The notes under the pieces were generated by a model. It saw only the letters and a program-made list of their open reading frames with translations. It did not search any database and was not told the DNA's origin. DNA of 21,081 nucleotides from Acidimicrobiaceae bacterium (lineage in GTDB: Bacteria; Actinomycetota; Acidimicrobiia; Acidimicrobiales; Bog-793). The first letter of the stretch is position 1. The number at the start of each line of letters is the position of its first letter. The translations under genes and the position numbers were made by a program. The stretch lies in NCBI GenBank assembly GCA_003136185.1, contig PLDN01000119.1:44598-65678 (forward strand). The letters run 5' to 3'. Below, piece by piece: positions 7,261 through 20,109 of the stretch.

Positions 7261-8721
7261 TCAGTTCCCGACCCCGAGCGAGACCGGCGACCGGACGACC
7301 ACCGTCCCGCGGGGAGGCGGCGCAACGGCCCGTTCGATCACGACGGGGTACTCCCCCACTGGGCCGAACTGCGAGCTCACGCGGAATACCCCCACCACTG
7401 CGCCGGCAGCCCAACCGTCATGCAGGTTCGCTGCGGTAACAGGGGCGCCGACAAGATCACCGGAGAAACTCAACCCACCCCAACCAGCCACCCGCACCGG
7501 ACCGGCTATCGACGCCCCCACAGTCGTGTGGGACCACGGGATCGACACCGAGGCGACCTTCACCATCGATCCGAAGGGCGAGACGAGCTGCAGATGGGCC
7601 GTAGCTGCATTCAGCATCGCCATGTCCACTTGGCCCGCCTGGCCCAGCCCGTCGACCTGGCCGGTCACCGAAGTGACGACGAGCACTTGCCTGCCGCCGA
7701 CCTTGCGCCACGCAGCCGCCACGAGGCAGCCTCCCGCAGCCTGAGTGAAGCCGGACTTCACCCCGATGATCCCGTCGAGACCGAGGACCGGGTTGTAGGT
7801 CGTGATCTCGCCCTCGACCGGAAAGGGGACTTCGTACAAGGCGACGATCGAACGGAAGACGGGGTTTCCCATCATGATCGAGCCGAGCAGCGCCTGGTCC
7901 GAGGCCGTCGAGACAGTCTTGCGGTCGACCCCGCTCGCGTCGGCGTAGTGGGTCTGCGTCATTCCGAGCAATAGGGCGGTCGAGTTCATCTTCGCGACGA
8001 AACGAGCCTCGGTGCCCCCCGCCCACCTCGCGAGGATGTCGGCCACATTGTCCGCCGACGGGATCAGGAGCGCCTCGAGAAGTTGCCGCTCAGTGAGAAC
8101 CTCGCCTTTGACGAGCTCCACGTTGGAGAGGTCATTCTCGGAGTACCTGATCCAGGCGTCGTGATCTGCCTGCGTGAAACGAAGACTCGGGCCCTGCTCG
8201 TTGCCCCGCAGAGGATGGGCGCGCAGCACGAGGTAAGCGGTCATGATCTTGGTTTCGCTCGCGATCGGGACCGGGTGCTCCTTCGGGCTCGCCGCGACGA
8301 TGCCCGTCCCGCTTATCGCGACTGCGCCCTCGCCGTGCGATGGAAAGGGCATCGCCGGGAGCTTGCCCGAGACCGGGGAGGTGGCGGCAGCCAGTTCAGT
8401 CAGGTGAGGCAACGAGACCTGTGCCGACGTCCCTGGCGCACCCGAGAGTGTCGACCCGTGCTCTCCTGTCAGCCTCGTGCCACCTAAGCCGGCCAGCGCC
8501 CAGGCGAGCAGGACGACAGAGACGGTCGCAAGCGAGCCGAGGACGATGATCCCGCGGCGGCGGGCACGGGCACGCGCCTGCGCAACCTTGCCAGCGCGCT
8601 CTCGGCGAGCTCGCAACTGGCCGGCGCTGTCCGCGCCGTCGCCGGGCAAGCCACCAAGTCTCTCGGTCGCTCCTCGAGCGTGCATCGGTGTTGCTGGTCG
8701 GTCGATCGGTCGGTGGCTCAT
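7261..8721 (-). CDS. D-alanyl-D-alanine carboxypeptidase (serine-type, PBP5/6-like, S11 family) with an N-terminal membrane anchor
   Basis: 486 aa. An Arg-rich cytoplasmic N-terminus is followed by a TM helix (GIIVLGSLATVSVVLLAWALAGL). The catalytic motifs are SETK (SxxK, in ASETKIMTAYLVL), SADN (SxN) and KSG (in GVKSGFT). Confidence 0.8.
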   Translation of the reverse strand: MSHRPIDRPATPMHARGATERLGGLPGDGADSAGQLRARRERAGKVAQARARARRRGIIVLGSLATVSVVLLAWALAGLGGTRLTGEHGSTLSGAPGTSAQVSLPHLTELAAATSPVSGKLPAMPFPSHGEGAVAISGTGIVAASPKEHPVPIASETKIMTAYLVLRAHPLRGNEQGPSLRFTQADHDAWIRYSENDLSNVELVKGEVLTERQLLEALLIPSADNVADILARWAGGTEARFVAKMNSTALLLGMTQTHYADASGVDRKTVSTASDQALLGSIMMGNPVFRSIVALYEVPFPVEGEITTYNPVLGLDGIIGVKSGFTQAAGGCLVAAAWRKVGGRQVLVVTSVTGQVDGLGQAGQVDMAMLNAATAHLQLVSPFGSMVKVASVSIPWSHTTVGASIAGPVRVAGWGGLSFSGDLVGAPVTAANLHDGWAAGAVVGVFRVSSQFGPVGEYPVVIERAVAPPPRGTVVVRSPVSLGVGN

Positions 8722-8769
8722 GAGAGAATTGGTCGAGCGTACGTCGGCTGGTGACCGGTCCTGTAAACC

Positions 8770-11649
8770 CTACGTGTTCAGCTGGTCGAACTCCTCTGGC
8801 GACATGAGCACCGTCCGCGCCTTCGAGCCCTCCGAAGCGCCCACGATGCCACGTCGCTCGAGCAGGTCCATCAGCCGGCCGGCGCGAGCAAACCCCACCC
8901 GGAGCTTGCGTTGAAGCATCGACGTGGAGCCTAGTTGCGAGCGCACCACTAGCTCCATGGCCTGCGAGAGCAGCTCGTCATCGTCGTCGTCGAAGGTCGA
9001 GGCTCCGCCCGGACCTGCTGACTCTTCGCCCTCGACGCCGTCGAGGTAGCGGGGACCGCTCTGCCGCTTCCAGTGCGCTGCGATGGCCCGAACCTCTTCT
9101 TCGCTCACCCATGGACCCTGTAGCCGCCGCGGGATGCTGGAGGACGCCGTCAACAGCAGTAGGTCTCCACGACCGATGAGTCGCTCGGCGCCGGGCTGGT
9201 CGAGGATCACGCGGCTGTCAGCGAGCGAGGAGACCGAAAAAGCGAGCCTCGAGGGGACGTTCGCTTTGATCACTCCGGTGATGACGTCAACAGATGGCCG
9301 CTGAGTCGCGATGACGAGGTGGATCCCAACTGCCCGTGCCATCTGAGCAATGCGGCAGATCGAGTCCTCGACGTCGCGAGCGGCGATCATCATTAGGTCG
9401 TTCAACTCATCGACGACGATCAGAACGAACGGCAGGCGCGAATGCTGGCGCTCCTCCCCCGCACTCGCTATCCGCCGCCGGCTCTCAGCCACAGCCTCAG
9501 CCGCCGACACCGAAGCCGAGCCAAATTCGCTAACAGGAATCCCGCTAGGAGCCGCCACAGGCACATCGGCCGGGTCATACGCTTCATTAGCGCCGCTCGA
9601 GCCGGCCGCGACGATTGTGTCGGAGCCGACGACCGTTTCTACGGTCGTCGGTGCCGAGACATCGTCGCCGTCGCCGCCATCGCCATCGCCATCCAGCAAA
9701 GGATCGTCGAACTCCCCCCGGTCAACCGCCGCGTTGTACCCCGTGATGTCGCGCATCCCGACCTCGGCAAGCAGGTCGTAGCGGCGCTCCATCTCGGCCA
9801 CTGCCCAACTGAGGGCATTCGCGGCACGCTTGGGGTTGACCACGACCTGGGTGAGCAGGTGCGGGAGGCCGTTGTACTGACCGAGCTCGACGCGTTTCGG
9901 GTCGACGAGGATGAGACGCACCTCGTCGGGGGTCGCCCGCATCAGGATCGAGGAGATGACCGAGTTGATGCACGACGACTTACCGGCGCCGGTCGCACCG
10001 GCGATGAGGATGTGGGGCATCTCGGCCAGGTTCACCATGACCGCCCGGCCGGCGATGTCCCGCCCGAGCGCCACCTCGAGAGGATGCGTCGCCCTACGAG
10101 CCTCCGTGCTCGTGAGGACGTCCCCGAGCGTGACGAGCTGACGCTGCTGGTTGGGCACCTCCACGCCGATTGCGGACCGGCCCGGGATGGGGGCGAGGAT
10201 GCGCACGTCCGGCGAGGCCATCGCGTAGGCGATGTCTTTCGCGAGGTTCGTCACGCGGGCCACTTTCACCCCGGCGCCGAGCTCCAGCTCGAAACGAGTA
10301 ACCGTCGGCCCAACCGTGAATCCCACCAGGTGCGTCTCGACGCCGTGGGCCGCTAGCGCACGCTCGAGGACTCTGCCGCGGGACTCGACCTCCTTGCGGT
10401 CGTGCGTCTGGTCCTTGCTCCGCTTCAGGATCTTGAGCGGCGGGAGCTTCCAGTTGCCACCCGACACGGCGACCGGGAGCGCCAGCTGTTCGACCTTGCC
10501 GGCACCGTCCGCATCCGTCCGACCGGCGGCCAGCATGCCCCCCGCCACGATGGGAGACACCCGGTCGGCCTCGCCATCGGTCGGGGCATCGACGCCTGCC
10601 ACCGCGGCATCGGCGCCGGCGCCGAGCCCTGCCGCCGCTGCCGGTGTAGCGATGGCAGGCACTCCGAGCCTTGTCCCGAGCGCCTCCTCCATGGCCACGT
10701 CGTCGAGCAGGCCCACGGCCGAAGGCGACCCATGCGGGGCGGACCCGATCGTCTCGTCGTAGCCAGTCATGGCCTGAACCGAAGGCTCGCCGGGGCCGTC
10801 GGGATCGAGCGCCGGTCGCCCGATAACCGACGTCCAAGTGGCAGAAAAGGCGCTGCACAGCCCTCCCCAGAGCCCGCGGGCTCCGATGCGGAGCACCTCT
10901 GCGACCCGCCCACCTAGGAGCCAGCAGCAAAGGGCGAGCGCAACGACGCTTATGACGACACCGGCGCCCGCTTGGCCGATGCCCTTCGCGAGACCACCAG
11001 CGATAACCGAGCCGAAGATGCCACCTGCGCCGCCGAGACGGTGCCAGGTGGCCGACGTCGGCGGGTTCCCCCCGAAAAGGTCGGCGAGGCCGGCCGAGGC
11101 GAGAGCCAGGGTCGCCACCGAGCAAACAGTGCCGAGAGCGCCCCAGACGGAGCGCTGCGCGATGAGCAGGACGCCTCCGACGATGAGGCCCACCTCGACC
11201 ACGTTCATCCCCCAGCCGAGCGTGCGGGCACCATTGGTGAACAGCCACGATCCGGCAGGTCCGAGCGCGTGGAAGGAGACGCCGAGCGAGATCAGCACTC
11301 CCGCAACCACGAGCAGCAAGCCCCAGGCGTCGTCGGGCTGGGCGCCGACCAGATCGAGCATGCGGTTCAAGGTGCGTTCGAGCGCGCCGGGACCGCGAGC
11401 AGCGGGCTTGCGGGAGGGCGCAGCGGGTCGCGCCCGTGAAGCCGACGACGCCGACTTCGCCTTCGAACCTCGGGCTCCGGACGTGGCCGAACCCGAACGC
11501 CCCGTCTTCCGCGTCGATGGTTCCCCCGAGGTGCGGGTGCCGGAGCGGGACGACGAGCCTGTACCCGTCCGACCGGCGGACCGCGACCCGGCAGCTGATT
11601 TCGTCACTGCCACAGTGCCACCAACGCTAACACCAGCCCCACCACTCAC
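8770..11649 (-). CDS. ftsK: DNA translocase FtsK (FtsK/SpoIIIE family)
   Basis: 959 aa. The N-terminus is S/G/T/R-rich and low-complexity. Four or five TM helices and a linker follow. The motor domain carries Walker A GATGAGKSS, Walker B LIVVDE and IATQRPSVDVITG. The C-terminal gamma winged-helix domain reads LLSQAMELVVRSQLGSTSMLQRKLRVGFARAGRLMDLLERRGIVG. The start is GTG at 11649; which start is used is uncertain. Confidence 0.9.
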   Translation of the reverse strand: MSGGAGVSVGGTVAVTKSAAGSRSAGRTGTGSSSRSGTRTSGEPSTRKTGRSGSATSGARGSKAKSASSASRARPAAPSRKPAARGPGALERTLNRMLDLVGAQPDDAWGLLLVVAGVLISLGVSFHALGPAGSWLFTNGARTLGWGMNVVEVGLIVGGVLLIAQRSVWGALGTVCSVATLALASAGLADLFGGNPPTSATWHRLGGAGGIFGSVIAGGLAKGIGQAGAGVVISVVALALCCWLLGGRVAEVLRIGARGLWGGLCSAFSATWTSVIGRPALDPDGPGEPSVQAMTGYDETIGSAPHGSPSAVGLLDDVAMEEALGTRLGVPAIATPAAAAGLGAGADAAVAGVDAPTDGEADRVSPIVAGGMLAAGRTDADGAGKVEQLALPVAVSGGNWKLPPLKILKRSKDQTHDRKEVESRGRVLERALAAHGVETHLVGFTVGPTVTRFELELGAGVKVARVTNLAKDIAYAMASPDVRILAPIPGRSAIGVEVPNQQRQLVTLGDVLTSTEARRATHPLEVALGRDIAGRAVMVNLAEMPHILIAGATGAGKSSCINSVISSILMRATPDEVRLILVDPKRVELGQYNGLPHLLTQVVVNPKRAANALSWAVAEMERRYDLLAEVGMRDITGYNAAVDRGEFDDPLLDGDGDGGDGDDVSAPTTVETVVGSDTIVAAGSSGANEAYDPADVPVAAPSGIPVSEFGSASVSAAEAVAESRRRIASAGEERQHSRLPFVLIVVDELNDLMMIAARDVEDSICRIAQMARAVGIHLVIATQRPSVDVITGVIKANVPSRLAFSVSSLADSRVILDQPGAERLIGRGDLLLLTASSSIPRRLQGPWVSEEEVRAIAAHWKRQSGPRYLDGVEGEESAGPGGASTFDDDDDELLSQAMELVVRSQLGSTSMLQRKLRVGFARAGRLMDLLERRGIVGASEGSKARTVLMSPEEFDQLNT

Positions 11650-11690
11650 TGGGGCATCGTCGCTCGGGGCTCGAGACCGGCCGTCCCCCC

Positions 11691-14087
11691 TCAGGAGCCC
11701 GCGTGGCGATCGTGGCGCGCCGCTAGCCCGTGCGAGACGGCGTACCTCGTCGCCTCCACCCGGCTGCGGATGTCGAGCTTGGCGTAGATGTTGGCGAGGT
11801 GCCGCTCGACGGTGCCCACGCTCAGGTGCAGGCGCGCTGCGATCTCTTTGTTGCTCGATCCCGCCGCGACTAGCCCGAGCACCTCTGCCTGGCGAGGCGT
11901 CAGCCTGTCGGGCAGCGCCACGACCGTGAGCTCGCCGAGCTCTCCGAGCGCGGCCCGGGCGGCCGCCAACCCCTGGGTGTTGCCCGTCTCGGCTGCGAGC
12001 GACTCGGCCTCACGCAGGTGCTTGGCGGCGTCCTCGAGCTGTCCGAGCTGGTGCAACGCGCCGCTGAGCCCGATCAGCGCGTTCACGACGTCGTGCGCGT
12101 GCCCGCCTTCCCGGTAGACGACCACGGCTGTCTGGTAATACCCCGCAGCCCCGGACCAGTCCTGACGGCTGGCGCACAGGTCGCCCTGGTTGCATCGAAT
12201 GGTGCCGATCAGTTGACGGTTGTCGAGCTCGTGGGCGAGCGCTCCCGCCTCTGCCAGCGCCCGAGCCGCCATCTCGGGCAAACCGGTGCGGATCAGCACG
12301 TCGGAGAGATTGGCGAGCCCGATAGCGACTGAACGCGGGTCGCCGAGCTGGCGCTTGATGACGAGGGCCTGCTCGAACAGCTCACGAGCCGCAATGAGGT
12401 CGTCGTCGTCCAGCGCCAAGAGAGCAAGGTTGTTGAGCGCGACGGACACCCCGCGGCGGTCGCTCATCGCGTCGCGCAGCTCCATCGCGACCTGGAAGTT
12501 GCGACGTGCGGCGTCGCGGTCGCCGAGGTAGCGGTGAGCAGAGCCGAGCACCGTCGCGGCGAAGGCTGCCAACTCCCGGCGCCCGAGGCTCTGGAAGATG
12601 CCGAGAGAGACAGTCGCCTGGCGGACCGCATCGGCGTAGTCGCCGTTCTCGGCCGCGAGCACGGCGGCGGCGCTGAGGCCGTGGGCGACCGTCTCGTCGC
12701 GGCGGCGACCGGCCGCCTGCAGGAACGTACGCAGCCATCCGCGCCCGACCGTCAGCCGCCCGCACATCAGCCACCAGCGCCACAGGCGGGCGCTCATCTC
12801 GAGTCCGAGATCGGGATCGCCCTCCTCCTCGGCCCACCAAAGGGCGAGCTCGAGGTCGGGATTGGCCGCGTCCATCCGGACCGCCCACTGCGTGCTCTCG
12901 CTGCCGGCGAGGCCGTCCTCGCTGCCGCGGGCGAGCTCGGCGAAGTGCTCGGCGTGCCTACGCCGTAGTTCAGGTCCCTCGTCGGCCGCCGGCGCCAAAC
13001 CGGCGACGTAGACACGCACCGTGTCGAGCATCGTGAAGCGCGCCTGGCCGCTCTCGTGCTTGGCCACCAGGAAGGACGAGTCGACCAGTTCCCGCAGTAG
13101 CGAGGCGACCTCGTGAGCATCGACGGCCGCGACCGCCTGCGCATCGTCGATCGTGAACGCCCCTGCGAACGTGCTGAGCGCGGGAAGGAGTCGCTGCACA
13201 GTAGGACCGAGCAGGGCGTAGCTCTGCGCGGCGACCGACTCCAACGTCCGACTGGCCTCCGAACCGGGAGCAGCGGGCGCCGAGGCGATCAGCGTGTCAC
13301 GGCGGGCGGCTATCTCCCCGATCGAGAGCGTCCCCACCCACCCGGCGATCAACTCGATCGCAAGCGGGAGCCCGTCGAGCCGGCGGCACAGCTCGCCAGC
13401 CAGGCGCTGGTCGTCCCGCCCGGCGGCCAGGTCGGGCAGCCGCTCCCTCGCACGGGTAAGGAAAAGCTGTACTGCATCGGCGCTGTCGAGTTGGGCCGCC
13501 GACGCCCCGACAGGGGGGACGGCGAGCGGGGGGACGACGAACGAGGCCTCTCCCGCGACACCGAGCACCCGCCGGCTCGTCACTACGATCCGAAGGCCCG
13601 GTGCTGCCGAGAGCAAGCCTCTGACAAGGTCGGCTACCTCGTCGCGGAGCTGCTCGGCTCCGTCCAGCACCAGCACCTGCGCGGTCCCGACGAGCGCCTC
13701 GGCGATTGCCTCGTTCGTCGGGACGTCCGGTCGGTCACGGACGCGGAGGGCGGCAGCGACCGCAGCGCTCAGGAACGCCGCGCCCCGAATCGGCTCGAGC
13801 GCCACGAACGTCACCGGCAGGCCGAGCTCACTGCCTCGGATCGCTTCGAGAGCGAGGCGGGTCTTGCCGACACCGCCTGGGCCCGTGAGGCACACGAGAC
13901 GGTTGCGGGTTAGCAGCTCACCGAGGGCCGCCAGCTCGGCGGCTCGCCCGACGAAGCTCGACAGCGGCCAAGGCAACGACCCTCCGCCGGGCTCGCCAGC
14001 TGCCGAGCTATCCGACCCTCCGGCCGGCTCGGCCGGCATCGATCGCGCCGCCGCTGGCGCCGAACCAGCCGCATGCTCCGCCTCCAA
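11691..14087 (-). CDS. Large ATP-binding LuxR-family transcriptional regulator (STAND/NB-ARC-like ATPase + TPR repeats + C-terminal LuxR HTH)
   Basis: 798 aa. It has the P-loop LVCLTGPGGVGKTRLA. A central region of TPR-like repeats follows (LANLSDV..., ALNNLALLAL...). The C-terminus, LTPRQAEVLGLVAAGSSNKEIAARLHLSVGTVERHLANIYAKLDIRSRVEA, is a LuxR/GerE-type HTH. The track start at 14087 is TTG; an alternative ATG lies at 14039. Confidence 0.8.
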   Translation of the reverse strand: MEAEHAAGSAPAAARSMPAEPAGGSDSSAAGEPGGGSLPWPLSSFVGRAAELAALGELLTRNRLVCLTGPGGVGKTRLALEAIRGSELGLPVTFVALEPIRGAAFLSAAVAAALRVRDRPDVPTNEAIAEALVGTAQVLVLDGAEQLRDEVADLVRGLLSAAPGLRIVVTSRRVLGVAGEASFVVPPLAVPPVGASAAQLDSADAVQLFLTRARERLPDLAAGRDDQRLAGELCRRLDGLPLAIELIAGWVGTLSIGEIAARRDTLIASAPAAPGSEASRTLESVAAQSYALLGPTVQRLLPALSTFAGAFTIDDAQAVAAVDAHEVASLLRELVDSSFLVAKHESGQARFTMLDTVRVYVAGLAPAADEGPELRRRHAEHFAELARGSEDGLAGSESTQWAVRMDAANPDLELALWWAEEEGDPDLGLEMSARLWRWWLMCGRLTVGRGWLRTFLQAAGRRRDETVAHGLSAAAVLAAENGDYADAVRQATVSLGIFQSLGRRELAAFAATVLGSAHRYLGDRDAARRNFQVAMELRDAMSDRRGVSVALNNLALLALDDDDLIAARELFEQALVIKRQLGDPRSVAIGLANLSDVLIRTGLPEMAARALAEAGALAHELDNRQLIGTIRCNQGDLCASRQDWSGAAGYYQTAVVVYREGGHAHDVVNALIGLSGALHQLGQLEDAAKHLREAESLAAETGNTQGLAAARAALGELGELTVVALPDRLTPRQAEVLGLVAAGSSNKEIAARLHLSVGTVERHLANIYAKLDIRSRVEATRYAVSHGLAARHDRHAGS

Positions 14088-14120
14088 CGCCTCGAGCCGG
14101 CGCGCCGCCTGAGGCGAGAT

Positions 14121-14278
14121 CTAGGTGCGGCCCGTCTCCCACCGATTTACTGTTGCGAACGAGACTCCGAGACGGTGCGCCAGCTGCCCTGGCTCACTCC
14201 CATGGCCGAGCGCAGCTCGCGAAGCCGCCCAGGCAGGTTCTCGTCGGCCGGTCCTGACCCGGCAGGGCCAGCCGGCAA
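14121..14278 (-). pseudogene. Frameshifted remnant of a small XRE (Cro/C1)-family helix-turn-helix gene
   Basis: On the minus strand one frame reads ...[17 protein letters not shown](SW...), the first half of an XRE HTH. The frame 1 nt away continues (G)[21 protein letters not shown], the second half, and ends at TAG 14123..14121. A single missing base in cagggc^agctgg would restore [34 protein letters not shown]. Confidence 0.4.
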
Positions 14279-14283
14279 GGCCC

Positions 14284-15954
14284 TCAGGCCTCCACCACGA
14301 CCGGCACGATCATCGGCCGGCGGCGCGTCCTCTCGTTCACGAGGCGCCCGAGCGTCCGCCGGATAATCCGCCGCAACGCATCAGGTTCGTGCTTGCCCTC
14401 GCCGACCGCCACTTCGACAGCCTTCTCGATCGCCGCCCGTGCCTCCGACGCCAGGTCCTCATGGCCCGCATCATCCAAGAAACCCCGACTTACCACCTCA
14501 GCCCGCCCGACGAGCTTTCCCGTTCGCCGCGCAACAGTCACAACCGCCACGACGACGCCCTCTTCTGCCAGCACCCGCCGGTCGCGCAGCACACCGAGGC
14601 CGACGTCGCCCGCGATCCCATCCACGAAGATGTAGTCCGAGGGGACCTCGCCGTCGAAGTCGATCCCGTCGTCGGTGAGCGCGATCACGTCGCCGTCCTC
14701 GCAGACGAGGACCTCCTTCGCAGGCACGCCCATCTCGATCGCGAGCCGGGAGTGGCGCAACAGGTGTCGGTACTCGCCATGGACCGGGACGAAGCTCGCC
14801 GGCCGGGCGATCGACAACAAGGTCGCGAGCTCGCCCTGGCGGGCATGGCCACTCTCGTGCACGTGGGCGACCGAAGCGTGGATCACCTCCGCGCCGCGCC
14901 GGGCGAGGCCGTCCATGACCTTGCCGACGGCCCACTCGTTACCGGGGATCGCGTGCGAGCTCAGTACGACCACGTCGCCGTCGACGATGTTGAGCCAGCG
15001 GCTCTCACCACCGGCCATCAACGAAAGCGCCGACATCGGCTCACCCTGCGAGCCCGTCGAGAGGATGCAGAGCTCGCCGGGATCGACACGGTCGATTTCC
15101 TCGATGTCGACGATCGACTGGTCGGAGATGTGGAGGAGCCCCAACTCGCGGGCGAGCGCGACGTTCTTCACCATCGACCGGCCGAGCAGTGCCATGCGCC
15201 GGCCGCTCGCGATGGCGGCTTCGGAGAGCTGCTGGATGCGGTGCACGTGGCTCGCGAAACAGGCCACGATGATGCGCCGCCCGGTATGGGTGTCGAAAAT
15301 ACGCCGGAGCGACTCGCCGACCAAGCTCTCACTGCCGGTGAACCCTGGCTCCTCGGCGTTCGTCGAGTCCGAGAGCAAGAGCCGGACGCCCACCGTCGAT
15401 GCGATCTCGCCGATCCGCGACAGGTCGGTGCGCCGTCCGTCGACCGGCGTCAGGTCGAGCTTGAAGTCGCCCGAGTGAAGCACGACCCCTTGATCGGTGT
15501 GGAAGGCCGTCGCGAAACCGTTCGGCACCGAGTGCGTGACGGGTATGAACTCGACGTCGAAGGGCCCGATGCGGCGGCGCTCACCATCGCTCACCGCAAT
15601 GAGTTTCGCCGAAGACGCCAGGTTCGCCTCGTCCAGCCGGTTGCGGGCGATCCCGAGCGTGAACGCCGAGCCGTAGACCGGCACGTTCATCTCCGTCAGC
15701 AAGTAGGCGATCGCCCCGACGTGGTCCTCGTGCCCGTGCGAAAGGACGATCCCGTCGACGTCGCCCGCCCGGTCGGTGAGGAATGAGAAGTCCGGCAGCA
15801 CGAGGTCGACCCCAGGCATTTCGGCGTTCGGGAACATCACTCCGCAGTCGAGGACCACGAGGCGTCCTGCCTGCTCGATGACCGCGCAGTTACGCCCTAT
15901 CTCGCCTAATCCCCCTAGAAACGCAACCCGTACCCGCTCACCCACCGCGCACAC
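14284..15954 (-). CDS. rnj: Ribonuclease J (MBL + beta-CASP + C-terminal domain)
   Basis: 556 aa with LGGLGEIGRNC, the HxHxDH motif LSHGHEDHVGA, and conserved beta-CASP and C-terminal regions. GTG start at 15954. It lies 24 nt downstream of dapA, as in mycobacteria. Confidence 0.9.
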   Translation of the reverse strand: MCAVGERVRVAFLGGLGEIGRNCAVIEQAGRLVVLDCGVMFPNAEMPGVDLVLPDFSFLTDRAGDVDGIVLSHGHEDHVGAIAYLLTEMNVPVYGSAFTLGIARNRLDEANLASSAKLIAVSDGERRRIGPFDVEFIPVTHSVPNGFATAFHTDQGVVLHSGDFKLDLTPVDGRRTDLSRIGEIASTVGVRLLLSDSTNAEEPGFTGSESLVGESLRRIFDTHTGRRIIVACFASHVHRIQQLSEAAIASGRRMALLGRSMVKNVALARELGLLHISDQSIVDIEEIDRVDPGELCILSTGSQGEPMSALSLMAGGESRWLNIVDGDVVVLSSHAIPGNEWAVGKVMDGLARRGAEVIHASVAHVHESGHARQGELATLLSIARPASFVPVHGEYRHLLRHSRLAIEMGVPAKEVLVCEDGDVIALTDDGIDFDGEVPSDYIFVDGIAGDVGLGVLRDRRVLAEEGVVVAVVTVARRTGKLVGRAEVVSRGFLDDAGHEDLASEARAAIEKAVEVAVGEGKHEPDALRRIIRRTLGRLVNERTRRRPMIVPVVVEA

Positions 15955-15978: not shown

Positions 15979-16905
15979 TCATGCGCTGGCCGCTTGCGAG
16001 CGGTCGCTCGCACGACGGCTCTCGAGATCCGCCAGGAGTGCCTCTGCCCGCTCCTCGAGCCAGCCCGGCGCCGCCCCGTGGGGAAGGCGACACTGCCCGA
16101 CATGAAGACCCATCGCCCGTAGGATCGCCTTTGCCGGCATGGGGTTCGGGGCTTCGTCACTTGCCTGGAAGGCAACGAGATCGATGAGATCGAGGTTCAA
16201 CTGCGCGGCGCCTTCGACGTCGCCGGCAAAGAACCGATTGATCATCTCGGAAAGCTCTGGCCCGATCCAGTGGGCCGAGACGCTCACGAGCCCGACGGCG
16301 CCGATCGCGAGGAGCGGCAGGGTCAGGCTGTCGTCGCCGCTGTAGACCTCGAAGCCTGGCGGTGCCTCGGCGACGAGGCGCGCCGTCCCGGCGGGGTCGG
16401 CGGTCGCGTCTTTGACGCCGATGACGTTTCTGTGCGCACGAGCGAGGCGGACCATCGTGTCCGTCGCGATCTTGCGCCCCGTACGGATTGGGATGTCGTA
16501 GAGCAGCACGGGCAGCGATGTCACGTCGGCGACGGCGCTGAAGTGCTGCGTCAGGCCCGCCTGCGAAGGACGGTTGTAGTACGGAGTCACCGCGAGGATG
16601 GCTGCCGCACCCGTCTCGGCGGCCTCCTTCGTCAAGGCGACAGAGTGGGCGGTGTCGTTCGTCGTCGAACCCGCGATCACCGGGATTGTGACGGCACTCG
16701 CCACTGCGCGCCACAGCTCGATCTTCTCGGCGTCCGAGAGCACCGGGGACTCGCCTGTCGTGCCGGCGACGACGAGAGCTTCACTTCCGGTCGATTGCAG
16801 ATGGCGGGCTAGCTCGACCGCGGCGTCGGCGTCGAGCTCCCCTTCTGCGTCGAAGGGTGTGACCATCGCCGTCGCGAGGCGGCCGAAGCGACTCATTCGT
16901 GCCAC
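15979..16905 (-). CDS. dapA: 4-hydroxy-tetrahydrodipicolinate synthase DapA
   Basis: 308 aa with TAMVTPF, VVAGTTGES, the TPYYNRP motif and the active-site Lys region NVIGVKDA. The start is GTG 16905 or ATG 16896. Confidence 0.9.
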   Translation of the reverse strand: MARMSRFGRLATAMVTPFDAEGELDADAAVELARHLQSTGSEALVVAGTTGESPVLSDAEKIELWRAVASAVTIPVIAGSTTNDTAHSVALTKEAAETGAAAILAVTPYYNRPSQAGLTQHFSAVADVTSLPVLLYDIPIRTGRKIATDTMVRLARAHRNVIGVKDATADPAGTARLVAEAPPGFEVYSGDDSLTLPLLAIGAVGLVSVSAHWIGPELSEMINRFFAGDVEGAAQLNLDLIDLVAFQASDEAPNPMPAKAILRAMGLHVGQCRLPHGAAPGWLEERAEALLADLESRRASDRSQAASA

Positions 16906-16998
16906 GGGACGACGCTACCAGTCGGTAACGCTTGGCCAGCCGCCACAGCGAGCCGGAGCGCCTCTCGGGTCGGTGCCAACGCGCCATTAGGCTCCGCC

Positions 16999-17241
16999 TT
17001 GGTGCAAACAGAAGGCGATTCCGACGAAGAACTCATCGGGAAGATCGGGCGGATCACGCTCCCGGTACCGGCGGACGGGCCAGGAGAGGTCCTCATCGAC
17101 GTACGGGGTGGGTCAGAGGCCTACGCCGCTTACTCCGACGAGCCGATCGCGAAGCACCGCCAGGTGGTCGTCGTCGAGGAGCGGTCCTCACGGTCCCTCG
17201 TGGTGACGCCACTGCCCGAATCCATCTTCCCAGCGAGGTGA
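16999..17241 (+). CDS. Small NfeD-like OB-fold protein (flotillin-associated), lacking the usual N-terminal transmembrane segment
   Basis: 80 aa. GKIGRITLPVPADGPGEVLIDVRGGSEAYAAYSDEPIAKHRQVVVVEERSSRSLVVTPL matches the beta-rich C-terminal OB-fold of NfeD/YuaF proteins. Its stop TGA (17239-17241) is 3 nt before the flotillin ATG, and the flotillin RBS lies inside this ORF. The start is TTG 16999 or GTG 17002, with no clear SD. The upstream in-frame sequence is not hydrophobic. Confidence 0.5.
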   Translation: MVQTEGDSDEELIGKIGRITLPVPADGPGEVLIDVRGGSEAYAAYSDEPIAKHRQVVVVEERSSRSLVVTPLPESIFPAR

Positions 17242-18651: not shown

Positions 18652-20109
18652 TCACGAGAACGCGATCGCCTCGCTCACCGAGTCGTGCGGGTCGTCCTCA
18701 TTTTGTGCCAGCACCTCACATCGTGTGGTCGTGTCGCAGTTGAGTGTGCTGCTCGGAATGGCCTTCGACACGTGCAAGCCGGTGTCTCCTGCCCCCGTGG
18801 CGTCGGCCGTCACCGCGCTTACCTCGAAGCAGGCGAGTTCGCCGGCTAGCGATGCGCATTCGGCCACCTCTAGCTGCGCACCGGCAGGGAAGTTGCTCAC
18901 GGCAACCGAGATGATGCTGCCGTCGCTGATACCCGTCGCGGGAGTCACCGATATGCCGGGCACGACGGGGGACCCCGAGGCGTTGAACGAGATCGAGCGG
19001 CTCGTCGAGTACCACCCGTCCAAGTCGTCCTGCACGAAGATGTCACACCGTGCCGTGTCACAACTCACCTTCGCGCTCGGGGCCTCCAACACGGGGAACT
19101 GAATGCTGACGTCTCCGGCGGAGGTTGCGTTGGTGTACACCAAATCGGGTGCGCAGGCCGCCACGCCGGCCACGCACTCCTGCACGGTCACCTCGTCGTC
19201 GGGTGCAAAGCCTGACACCGTCACGGTCACGATCTGGCCGTCGACCAGACCAGACCGCGTGCTGACTGTCTCGCTCGGCGAGAGCGCCTTGGCCTTCGGA
19301 TTGAAAGAGATGGGAGCAGAAATCGCAGACCCAGGCACGCCGGAGTACGTCGTCAAGGCACACCCGGGCGACTTCTCGCAGCTGACGGTCACCTGCCCAT
19401 GGCCGCTCGGATGTTCGATGTGGCTGCTGACGCGATAGGTGCCCGAGCTCTGACCCCTGGCGTTCGTCTGGAGGAAGGCGTCGTATTGGCGAAAGTCACA
19501 CTGATTGGTTGTCGGCTGGCCAACCGCCTCACACTCCCTCAGCTGAAAGCTGGAATCCGGTCTGAAGTTTTTGCCTGAGACAGTGACCGTCTCGTTCGGG
19601 GTCAAGTTCTTCGAGCTCGACAACGACAGGGTCGGGACGAGCGGCTTGGCCTTCGGGTTGAACGAGATCTTCTCGCCCGTCGACTGTCTCGCTGGGTCGA
19701 CGGCGTCCCCGGCTGCCACGATACAGCCCGGCGTCTTCACGCAATTGATCGTCGTCGAGCCGACGACGATGTCCTGGGAGACCTGGAAAGGCTCCGAGAA
19801 TGACCCAGTCGCTGAGGTGTCGAAAGTCGTCGCGAACTGCGTGTTCTCACATTGCGCCTCGGCCTTCGCCCCCGGCTCGCACTCGAGGATGCCCACATAG
19901 GTCTTTTTCAGAAAGTGGTAGCCGTGGACCGTGATTATCTGGCCGGACGCGAGGTTGGTGGCCTGACTCAGGTGGAGGGATGCCTTCGAGCTCGTCACCG
20001 CCTTAGCTGCCTCGGCTGCCTGCGCCAACTGAGCGCTCGTCGCCACCGACGACAGCGCCAGCAGTACTGCCACTACCCCGCCAATCTTGTATCGCGAGCT
20101 CTTCCGCAC
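18652..20109 (-). CDS. Secreted protein with four tandem neocarzinostatin-fold (NCS apoprotein-like) domains
   Basis: 485 aa. The N-terminal signal peptide MRKSSRYKIGGVVAVLLALSSVATSAQLAQA is followed by four repeats of ~110 aa. Each has the pattern LxxG(Q)xVTVxGxxF...ECx(8-12)C...(D)xxG.F...(I/V)xCx(5-6)C...ISF(N). The two Cys pairs with spacings of ~10 and ~5 mirror the C37-C47 and C88-C93 disulfides of neocarzinostatin/macromomycin/actinoxanthin apoproteins. ISFNPKAK linkers join the domains. GTG start at 20109 with the RBS GGGGGGAGAGGA. Confidence 0.7.
   Translation of the reverse strand: MRKSSRYKIGGVVAVLLALSSVATSAQLAQAAEAAKAVTSSKASLHLSQATNLASGQIITVHGYHFLKKTYVGILECEPGAKAEAQCENTQFATTFDTSATGSFSEPFQVSQDIVVGSTTINCVKTPGCIVAAGDAVDPARQSTGEKISFNPKAKPLVPTLSLSSSKNLTPNETVTVSGKNFRPDSSFQLRECEAVGQPTTNQCDFRQYDAFLQTNARGQSSGTYRVSSHIEHPSGHGQVTVSCEKSPGCALTTYSGVPGSAISAPISFNPKAKALSPSETVSTRSGLVDGQIVTVTVSGFAPDDEVTVQECVAGVAACAPDLVYTNATSAGDVSIQFPVLEAPSAKVSCDTARCDIFVQDDLDGWYSTSRSISFNASGSPVVPGISVTPATGISDGSIISVAVSNFPAGAQLEVAECASLAGELACFEVSAVTADATGAGDTGLHVSKAIPSSTLNCDTTTRCEVLAQNEDDPHDSVSEAIAFS

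Follow-up and report, generated by a model that had tools for sequence, protein, structure and literature searches.

The helix-turn-helix (HTH) sequence at 14121–14283 of the window (the whole 21,081-nt stretch of DNA analysed here) is the 5' end of one regulator gene of about 862 codons, of which the HTH is the N-terminal domain. Comparison with relatives showed, at the level of sequence, that the HTH is fused to a large regulator in all of them, and that in the window it is interrupted by two lesions, a 1-nt deletion and a nonsense codon. The lesions probably represent real strain-specific decay rather than assembly error; we gave this a probability of roughly 60%.

An HTH domain split over two reading frames

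The initial annotation had read an XRE-type HTH at 14121–14283, split over two frames, and such a domain is indeed present on the minus strand. The features of the region are as follows.

14276–14278 (−): probable true TTG start of the ancestral ~862-aa regulator, identical with the start of the NCBI-annotated protein P0121 of the sister species
14147–14278 (−): 43-aa remnant ORF, of which residues 1–30 are the authentic N-terminus and HTH helices 1–2; out of frame past the deletion
14187–14188 (−): frameshift site, where the A of Glu31 (GAG) is lost; the sole gap in 12,460 aligned bases against contig L001
14121–14186 (−): second HTH half with the recognition helix; shares the frame of the large ORF and terminates at TAG
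14121–14123 (−): nonsense codon TAG, from Gln53 CAG; CAG in all other contigs
14088–14120 (−): in-frame stretch ISPQAARRLEA, which follows the TAG, precedes the first possible restart and completes the HTH domain; the read-through HTH_3 match extends over it to residue 63
13977–14030 (−): linker with two 18-nt direct repeats (GAGCCsGsCGGAGGGTCG), 36 nt apart; an in-frame indel hotspot at the population level
11691–14087 (−): 798-aa ORF with linker, P-loop NTPase, HTH_77/TPR region and C-terminal LuxR/GerE HTH

The first half of the HTH lies in the frame of the 43-aa ORF (14278–14147, −) and the second half in another. As encoded in the window, the domain has no single uninterrupted frame, being broken by the deletion at 14187/14188 and the TAG at 14123–14121. 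The first piece by itself gave no Pfam match, and the second gave 24.4 bits to HTH_3. The check for XRE profile similarity that had been proposed was run, and the joined pieces passed the Pfam thresholds of both HTH_31 (38.3 bits, cut-off 27) and HTH_3 (35.5 bits, cut-off 23). When the frame was repaired, the scores were 41.6 bits for HTH_3 and 38.5 bits for HTH_31, above the gathering cut-offs of 23 and 27. The HTH is therefore real, and its scores are well above chance.

The frame of the second HTH half is that of the 798-aa ORF. It reads ...NRWETGRT, the TAG and then ISPQAARRLEALEAEHAAGS..., and the 41.6-bit HTH_3 match runs across the TAG (profile positions 1–45, residues 19–63). In the intact protein the XRE HTH occupies residues 17–63.

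The 798-aa ORF has a Walker A motif (GPGGVGKT) and a Walker B motif (VLVLD). Pfam matches on the regulator were GerE (70 bits, cut-off 23.5, residues 792–847), TPR_12 (70.6 bits) and AAA_22 (30.8 bits, cut-off 27). The repaired regulator was also matched by AAA_16, and TPR_MalT scored 30.7 bits, below its cut-off of 45. Matches in the PDB were to the LuxR-type domains of NarL, VraR and DevR. An assignment as a MalT orthologue was rejected: the NF003420 model, with its cut-off of 537, gave 43.9 bits and matched the LuxR domain alone.

The HTH is fused to the large regulator in relatives

A search with the repaired protein retrieved 7,564 proteins at E ≤ 1e-10. The best match, P0001, was 99% identical, 837 aa long and intact, with PF01381, and its contig was syntenic with the window (dapA, rnj, regulator, ftsK). 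Its 90%-identity cluster contained intact alleles of 837 aa and 825 aa; P0123, P0124 and P0127 were intact fused proteins. Another member of the cluster, P0121 (838 aa, from NCBI Acidimicrobiales MAGs), starts with MPAGPAGS..., which corresponds to the TTG at window position 14278. At the nucleotide level, at least 16 near-identical contigs spanning the region, and the syntenic sister-species loci L103–L105, encoded one continuous protein of 825–862 aa. The orthologous loci, whose comparison had been suggested as a check, thus carry the HTH intact.

The N-terminal HTH motif ending in.GRT was kept in 116 of the 120 best homologues, and the four exceptions were start miscalls or had a contaminated N-terminus. 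Mean identity over 115 homologues was 71.7% in the HTH, 65.5% in the LuxR domain, about 56% in the NTPase and TPR regions and 27% in the linker. The XRE head was nearly invariant among homologues (P0004–P0120) that were only 50–60% identical overall.

Four proteins, three called at 761 aa and one at 744 aa, resembled natural HTH-less forms, and the three whose loci were examined were artefacts. P0003 (744 aa) is a start miscall, L003 having an open 844-aa ORF with the HTH. P0122 (761 aa) comes from a contig (L009) with an intact HTH upstream, and P0129 follows an N gap in L008.

The family is very large, actinobacterial and uncharacterised, and combines an XRE HTH, a STAND ATPase, TPRs and a LuxR HTH. 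Its more than 7,500 matches carried multiple phylum-level labels, mostly Actinomycetota, and literature searches found no characterised member. A protein-guided scan of GTDB yielded only homologues of ≤61% identity; it supports the architecture and says nothing on orthology.

In the initial annotation the HTH was a small, ClgR-like regulator gene between rnj and the LuxR-type gene, recently decayed by one frameshift. The proximity to ftsK agrees with such a gene, and so does the joined 52-aa sequence, which scored above the HTH_3 and HTH_31 thresholds. Against it, the stop of the small gene is a CAG-to-TAG mutation that the HTH profile match crosses, the HTH is fused to the ATPase–TPR–LuxR body in every relative, the searches recovered no homologue among small proteins, and NCBIfam gave no match of the ClgR type. 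A separate small gene is therefore rejected: the HTH is the N-terminal domain of the LuxR-type gene itself. A stand-alone small ORF with a natural stop of its own was likewise rejected, since the stop is private to the window and the relatives encode the fused protein of 825–865 aa.

The start codon

The N-terminal extension LP.RLR.LR, which is HTH helix 1, was kept in homologues. Together with the start that NCBI calls for the sister species, this conservation points to the TTG as the probable start, giving about 862 aa. The TTG lies 5 nt past the rnj stop, with the same spacing in L103–L105.

Where the allele is intact, it is mostly called automatically as 837 aa (L001, L010–L015) from an internal ATG (MGVSQEQ...), which clips HTH helix 1 (window 14201–14278, −). 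Many database calls of the intact allele thus start too late.

Two lesions interrupt the reading frame

The window reads GCCAGGGCAGCTGG at the deletion and CGCACCTAGATC at the TAG, the two lesions being 63 nt apart. At the deletion, CAG GAG CAG has become CAG G-G CAG, as checked at the codon level. The missing base is thus the A of the Glu31 codon GAG, not the C that had been proposed, and the ancestral peptide is SQEQLA, not SQGQLA. One restored base had also been expected to give an intact small regulator. It does not, because of the nonsense codon 63 nt downstream; a one-base repair restores no gene.

The frameshift was found in none of the 18 other contigs covering its site, and the TAG in none of the 16 other contigs covering that codon. 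The position of Gln53 is CGG or CGC in the sister species and remoter homologues. Among 116 homologues, the residue at this position was Q in 59, R in 41, K in 7, H in 3, G and A in 2 each, and T and N in 1 each; none had a stop. Window-haplotype sequences expected in phase with both lesions are CAACAGTAAATCGG and GGGCCTTGCC, and the intact-allele counterparts (with GAG and CAG) are GCCAGGAGCAGC and CACCCAGATC.

Products of the lesion allele were absent from a collection of 15 billion proteins, with the possible exception of P0126 (761 aa), which probably comes from the window's own source. Exact look-ups in it found neither the 798-aa, 783-aa and 43-aa products of the window nor a hypothetical 52-aa product ended by the TAG.

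That both frames together encode a domain might suggest recoding, in which a programmed −1 frameshift at CAG GGC AGC and read-through of the TAG would yield the full-length protein. Nothing else spoke for this. A slippery heptamer of the form X XXY YYZ was absent at CAGGGCAGC, and Rfam gave no match at the putative frameshift site. In all 18 other contigs and in the sister species a single frame carries the domain without a shift, and relatives have GAG and CAG. Full-length protein would require two separate recoding events in the space of 63 nt, and translation would still stop at the TAG. Recoding, which the initial annotation had itself rated less likely, is rejected.

The lesions lie in a short divergent haplotype

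By blastn, the window and L001 shared 99.84% identity across 12,460 nt, the differences being 19 mismatches and one gap. Against L009 and L011–L015, only six sites differed in 8.3–8.5 kb, all in 14094–14344, and five of the six were private with respect to the 16 region-spanning contigs. From 8691 to 14093 the window was identical with L011. These five private differences (given in the sense of the gene) lie in or just upstream of the regulator gene.

14279: T>C, 1 nt upstream of the TTG start
14187/14188: loss of A in Glu31 (GAG), frameshift
14148: GTG>GTA, Val44, silent
14123: CAG>TAG, Gln53, nonsense
14094: CTT>CTC, Leu62, silent

The chance of six differences all falling within 251 of 8,513 nt was about 7e-10, which ruled out uniform mutation as the source of the clustering. 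All four private substitutions were transitions, and the deleted A lay outside any homopolymer. Two of the four (C at 14279, and sense C at 14094) were the base of the sister species (L103), which shows that at these two sites the window state is ancestral and the majority haplotype derived. The C at 14279 was also common to two Logan contigs from other samples, L101 (SRR35930657) and L102 (SRR11558294), which represent somewhat more divergent strains. Both contigs end at 14149, one base before the 14148 variant, as expected where an assembly graph branches at a polymorphic site; both lack the deletion despite sharing the 14279 allele. The loci compared for the haplotype were L101:4401-4552, L102:3395-3546 and L103:3980-4225.

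The aligned bases thus showed the 186-nt lesion-bearing segment to be a genuine, locally divergent and partly ancestral haplotype. Because of the sister-species bases and the allele in independent contigs, the segment is an old divergent haplotype and not random error. It points to deep coalescence, or to the import of a short tract by recombination, within 8 kb that are otherwise nearly clonal.

As the origin of the segment, random errors in a burst and a synthetic edit were both rejected on account of the sister-species bases and the presence of the 14279 allele in other samples. Gene conversion from a paralogue or from the sister species was rejected as well: these differ at far more sites, and have neither the A at 14148 nor the T at 14123 (sense). 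Exact-pattern scans for both alleles gave no match in genome_contigs and metagenome_contigs, which do not hold this population, so that the scans yield no allele frequencies.

A second cluster of differences was seen against the more divergent strain L101, at 16911–17000, with about ten changes in 90 nt, including an indel. It is intergenic, upstream of dapA.

Strain-specific decay or assembly error

The organism might instead have an intact 862-aa gene, the lesions being assembly or consensus errors from a low-coverage or mixed-strain path through a polymorphic region. Neither lesion occurred in any other contig of the population, and the two independent contigs with the 14279 allele (L101 and L102) were without the deletion. 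Elsewhere in the population the HTH does not vary, and across the family it is strongly conserved. Other assemblies also break here, with the N gap in L008, the contig termini of L101 and L102, and the 36-nt indel polymorphism. Since the region is hard to assemble, a minority low-coverage path could carry errors.

On the other hand, the rest of the window was nearly error-free: no other difference from L011 was seen over about 8.3 kb, and 12.46 kb of alignment contained a single indel. The two substitutions matching the sister-species base, one of them common to other samples, indicate a genuine haplotype. The deletion lies outside any homopolymer, and a polished assembly is unlikely to have acquired two or three independent errors in a span of 66 nt. 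We judged an artefact to be a substantial possibility, though the less likely one, and interpreted the locus as an ordinary strain-specific disruption of the N-terminal domain.

The initial annotation had offered a decayed regulator, a sequencing indel or a programmed frameshift. The first probably stands, with the decay in a domain rather than in a gene of its own; the second keeps a real chance; the third has practically none.

Neighbourhood of the regulator gene

The flanking genes were the following.

15979–16905 (−): dapA, upstream of rnj; TIGR00674 262.6 bits, cut-off 206
14284–15954 (−): rnj (RNase J); TIGR00649 513.7 bits, cut-off 400; TGA stop at 14286–14284
8770–11649 (−): ftsK, the downstream neighbour; NCBIfam FtsK 452.9 bits, with Pfam FtsK domains in the syntenic loci

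An identical RNase J protein was encoded on 17 contigs. Because the TTG start follows the rnj stop by 5 nt, the regulator is probably co-transcribed with dapA–rnj; it is probably also translationally coupled to rnj. No sigma-70-like promoter or terminator was detected in 13500–14800, where the promoter scan had low power at 67% G+C, and no Rfam element or structured RNA was found in the same interval.

Read from a GTG, the longest ORF of ftsK has 959 aa, as compared with calls of 848–863 aa on syntenic contigs, and its start is uncertain. At 18652–20109 (−) lies a gene for a 485-aa protein with four tandem neocarzinostatin/enediyne-chromoprotein-like repeats, which was matched by NF040680 in four stretches (168 bits, cut-off 86) and is kept in the syntenic loci (Pfam Neocarzinostat).

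The two repeats in the linker are GAGCCGGCCGGAGGGTCG and GAGCCCGGCGGAGGGTCG. The 825-aa alleles (P0125, P0128 and P0130) have an in-frame deletion of exactly 36 nt (12 aa) between them, and the scaffold gap of L008 is at these repeats (13977–14030).

Predicted products and their consequences

The intact protein is a cytoplasmic regulator with an N-terminal XRE HTH, a STAND/LAL-type P-loop NTPase, a TPR sensor and, at its C-terminus, a LuxR/GerE HTH. To judge by the analogous MalT and AfsR, it may sense a signal through its TPR and NTPase modules, oligomerise on ATP binding and bind DNA.

In the window, translation from the native start would end after 43 codons and yield a useless 43-aa peptide. 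Translation could restart at TTG 14087, ATG 14039 or TTG 13976; GGAGGG precedes the third of these, from which comes the 761-aa database call P0126. At best, internal re-initiation at one of the three might give an HTH-less protein of 761–798 aa, with the canonical LAL layout of ATPase, TPR and LuxR domains. Losing the most conserved DNA-binding module would abolish or rewire the regulon.

A rather unlikely extension of the preferred reading is that the XRE-less allele persists as an old haplotype in the wild peat/permafrost Acidimicrobiales population, its flanks homogenised by recombination, and that an internal start still allows its expression in the form of a plain LAL-type protein. If so, it would be a natural domain knock-out kept as a regulatory polymorphism, not a dead gene. 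A headless natural allele, if real, would be a ready tool for asking what role the second DNA-binding domain plays.

No gene should be called for the small ORF. The locus is to be annotated either as one disrupted (pseudo)gene or as a LAL-type regulator truncated at its N-terminus.

Comparison with known regulators

LAL regulators are defined by an N-terminal Walker A domain and a C-terminal LuxR HTH (PMC9628970). The window protein resembles them, including SCO6993 of Streptomyces, in its matches to GerE, TPR_MalT and AAA_22. The intact ancestral protein differs in having an additional N-terminal XRE-type HTH, which is absent from canonical LALs. The truncated ORF of the window would secondarily resemble a plain LAL.

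SARP-LAL or AfsR-type regulators, such as PimR and AfsR, have an N-terminal DNA-binding domain, a central ATPase and C-terminal TPRs (PMC5930380). The window regulator follows the same domain logic, and its TPR region matched the AfsR model weakly (NF053617, 26.4 bits against a cut-off of 1430). Its N-terminal domain, however, is of the XRE/Cro-C1 and not the SARP/OmpR type, and it has a C-terminal LuxR HTH, which PimR lacks.

ClgR and the window regulator both have a Cro/C1-type HTH. The actinobacterial clgR gene is found near ftsK, like the HTH of the window. ClgR, on the other hand, is a separate protein of about 100 aa, whereas every relative examined has the HTH of the window as part of an 862-aa protein.
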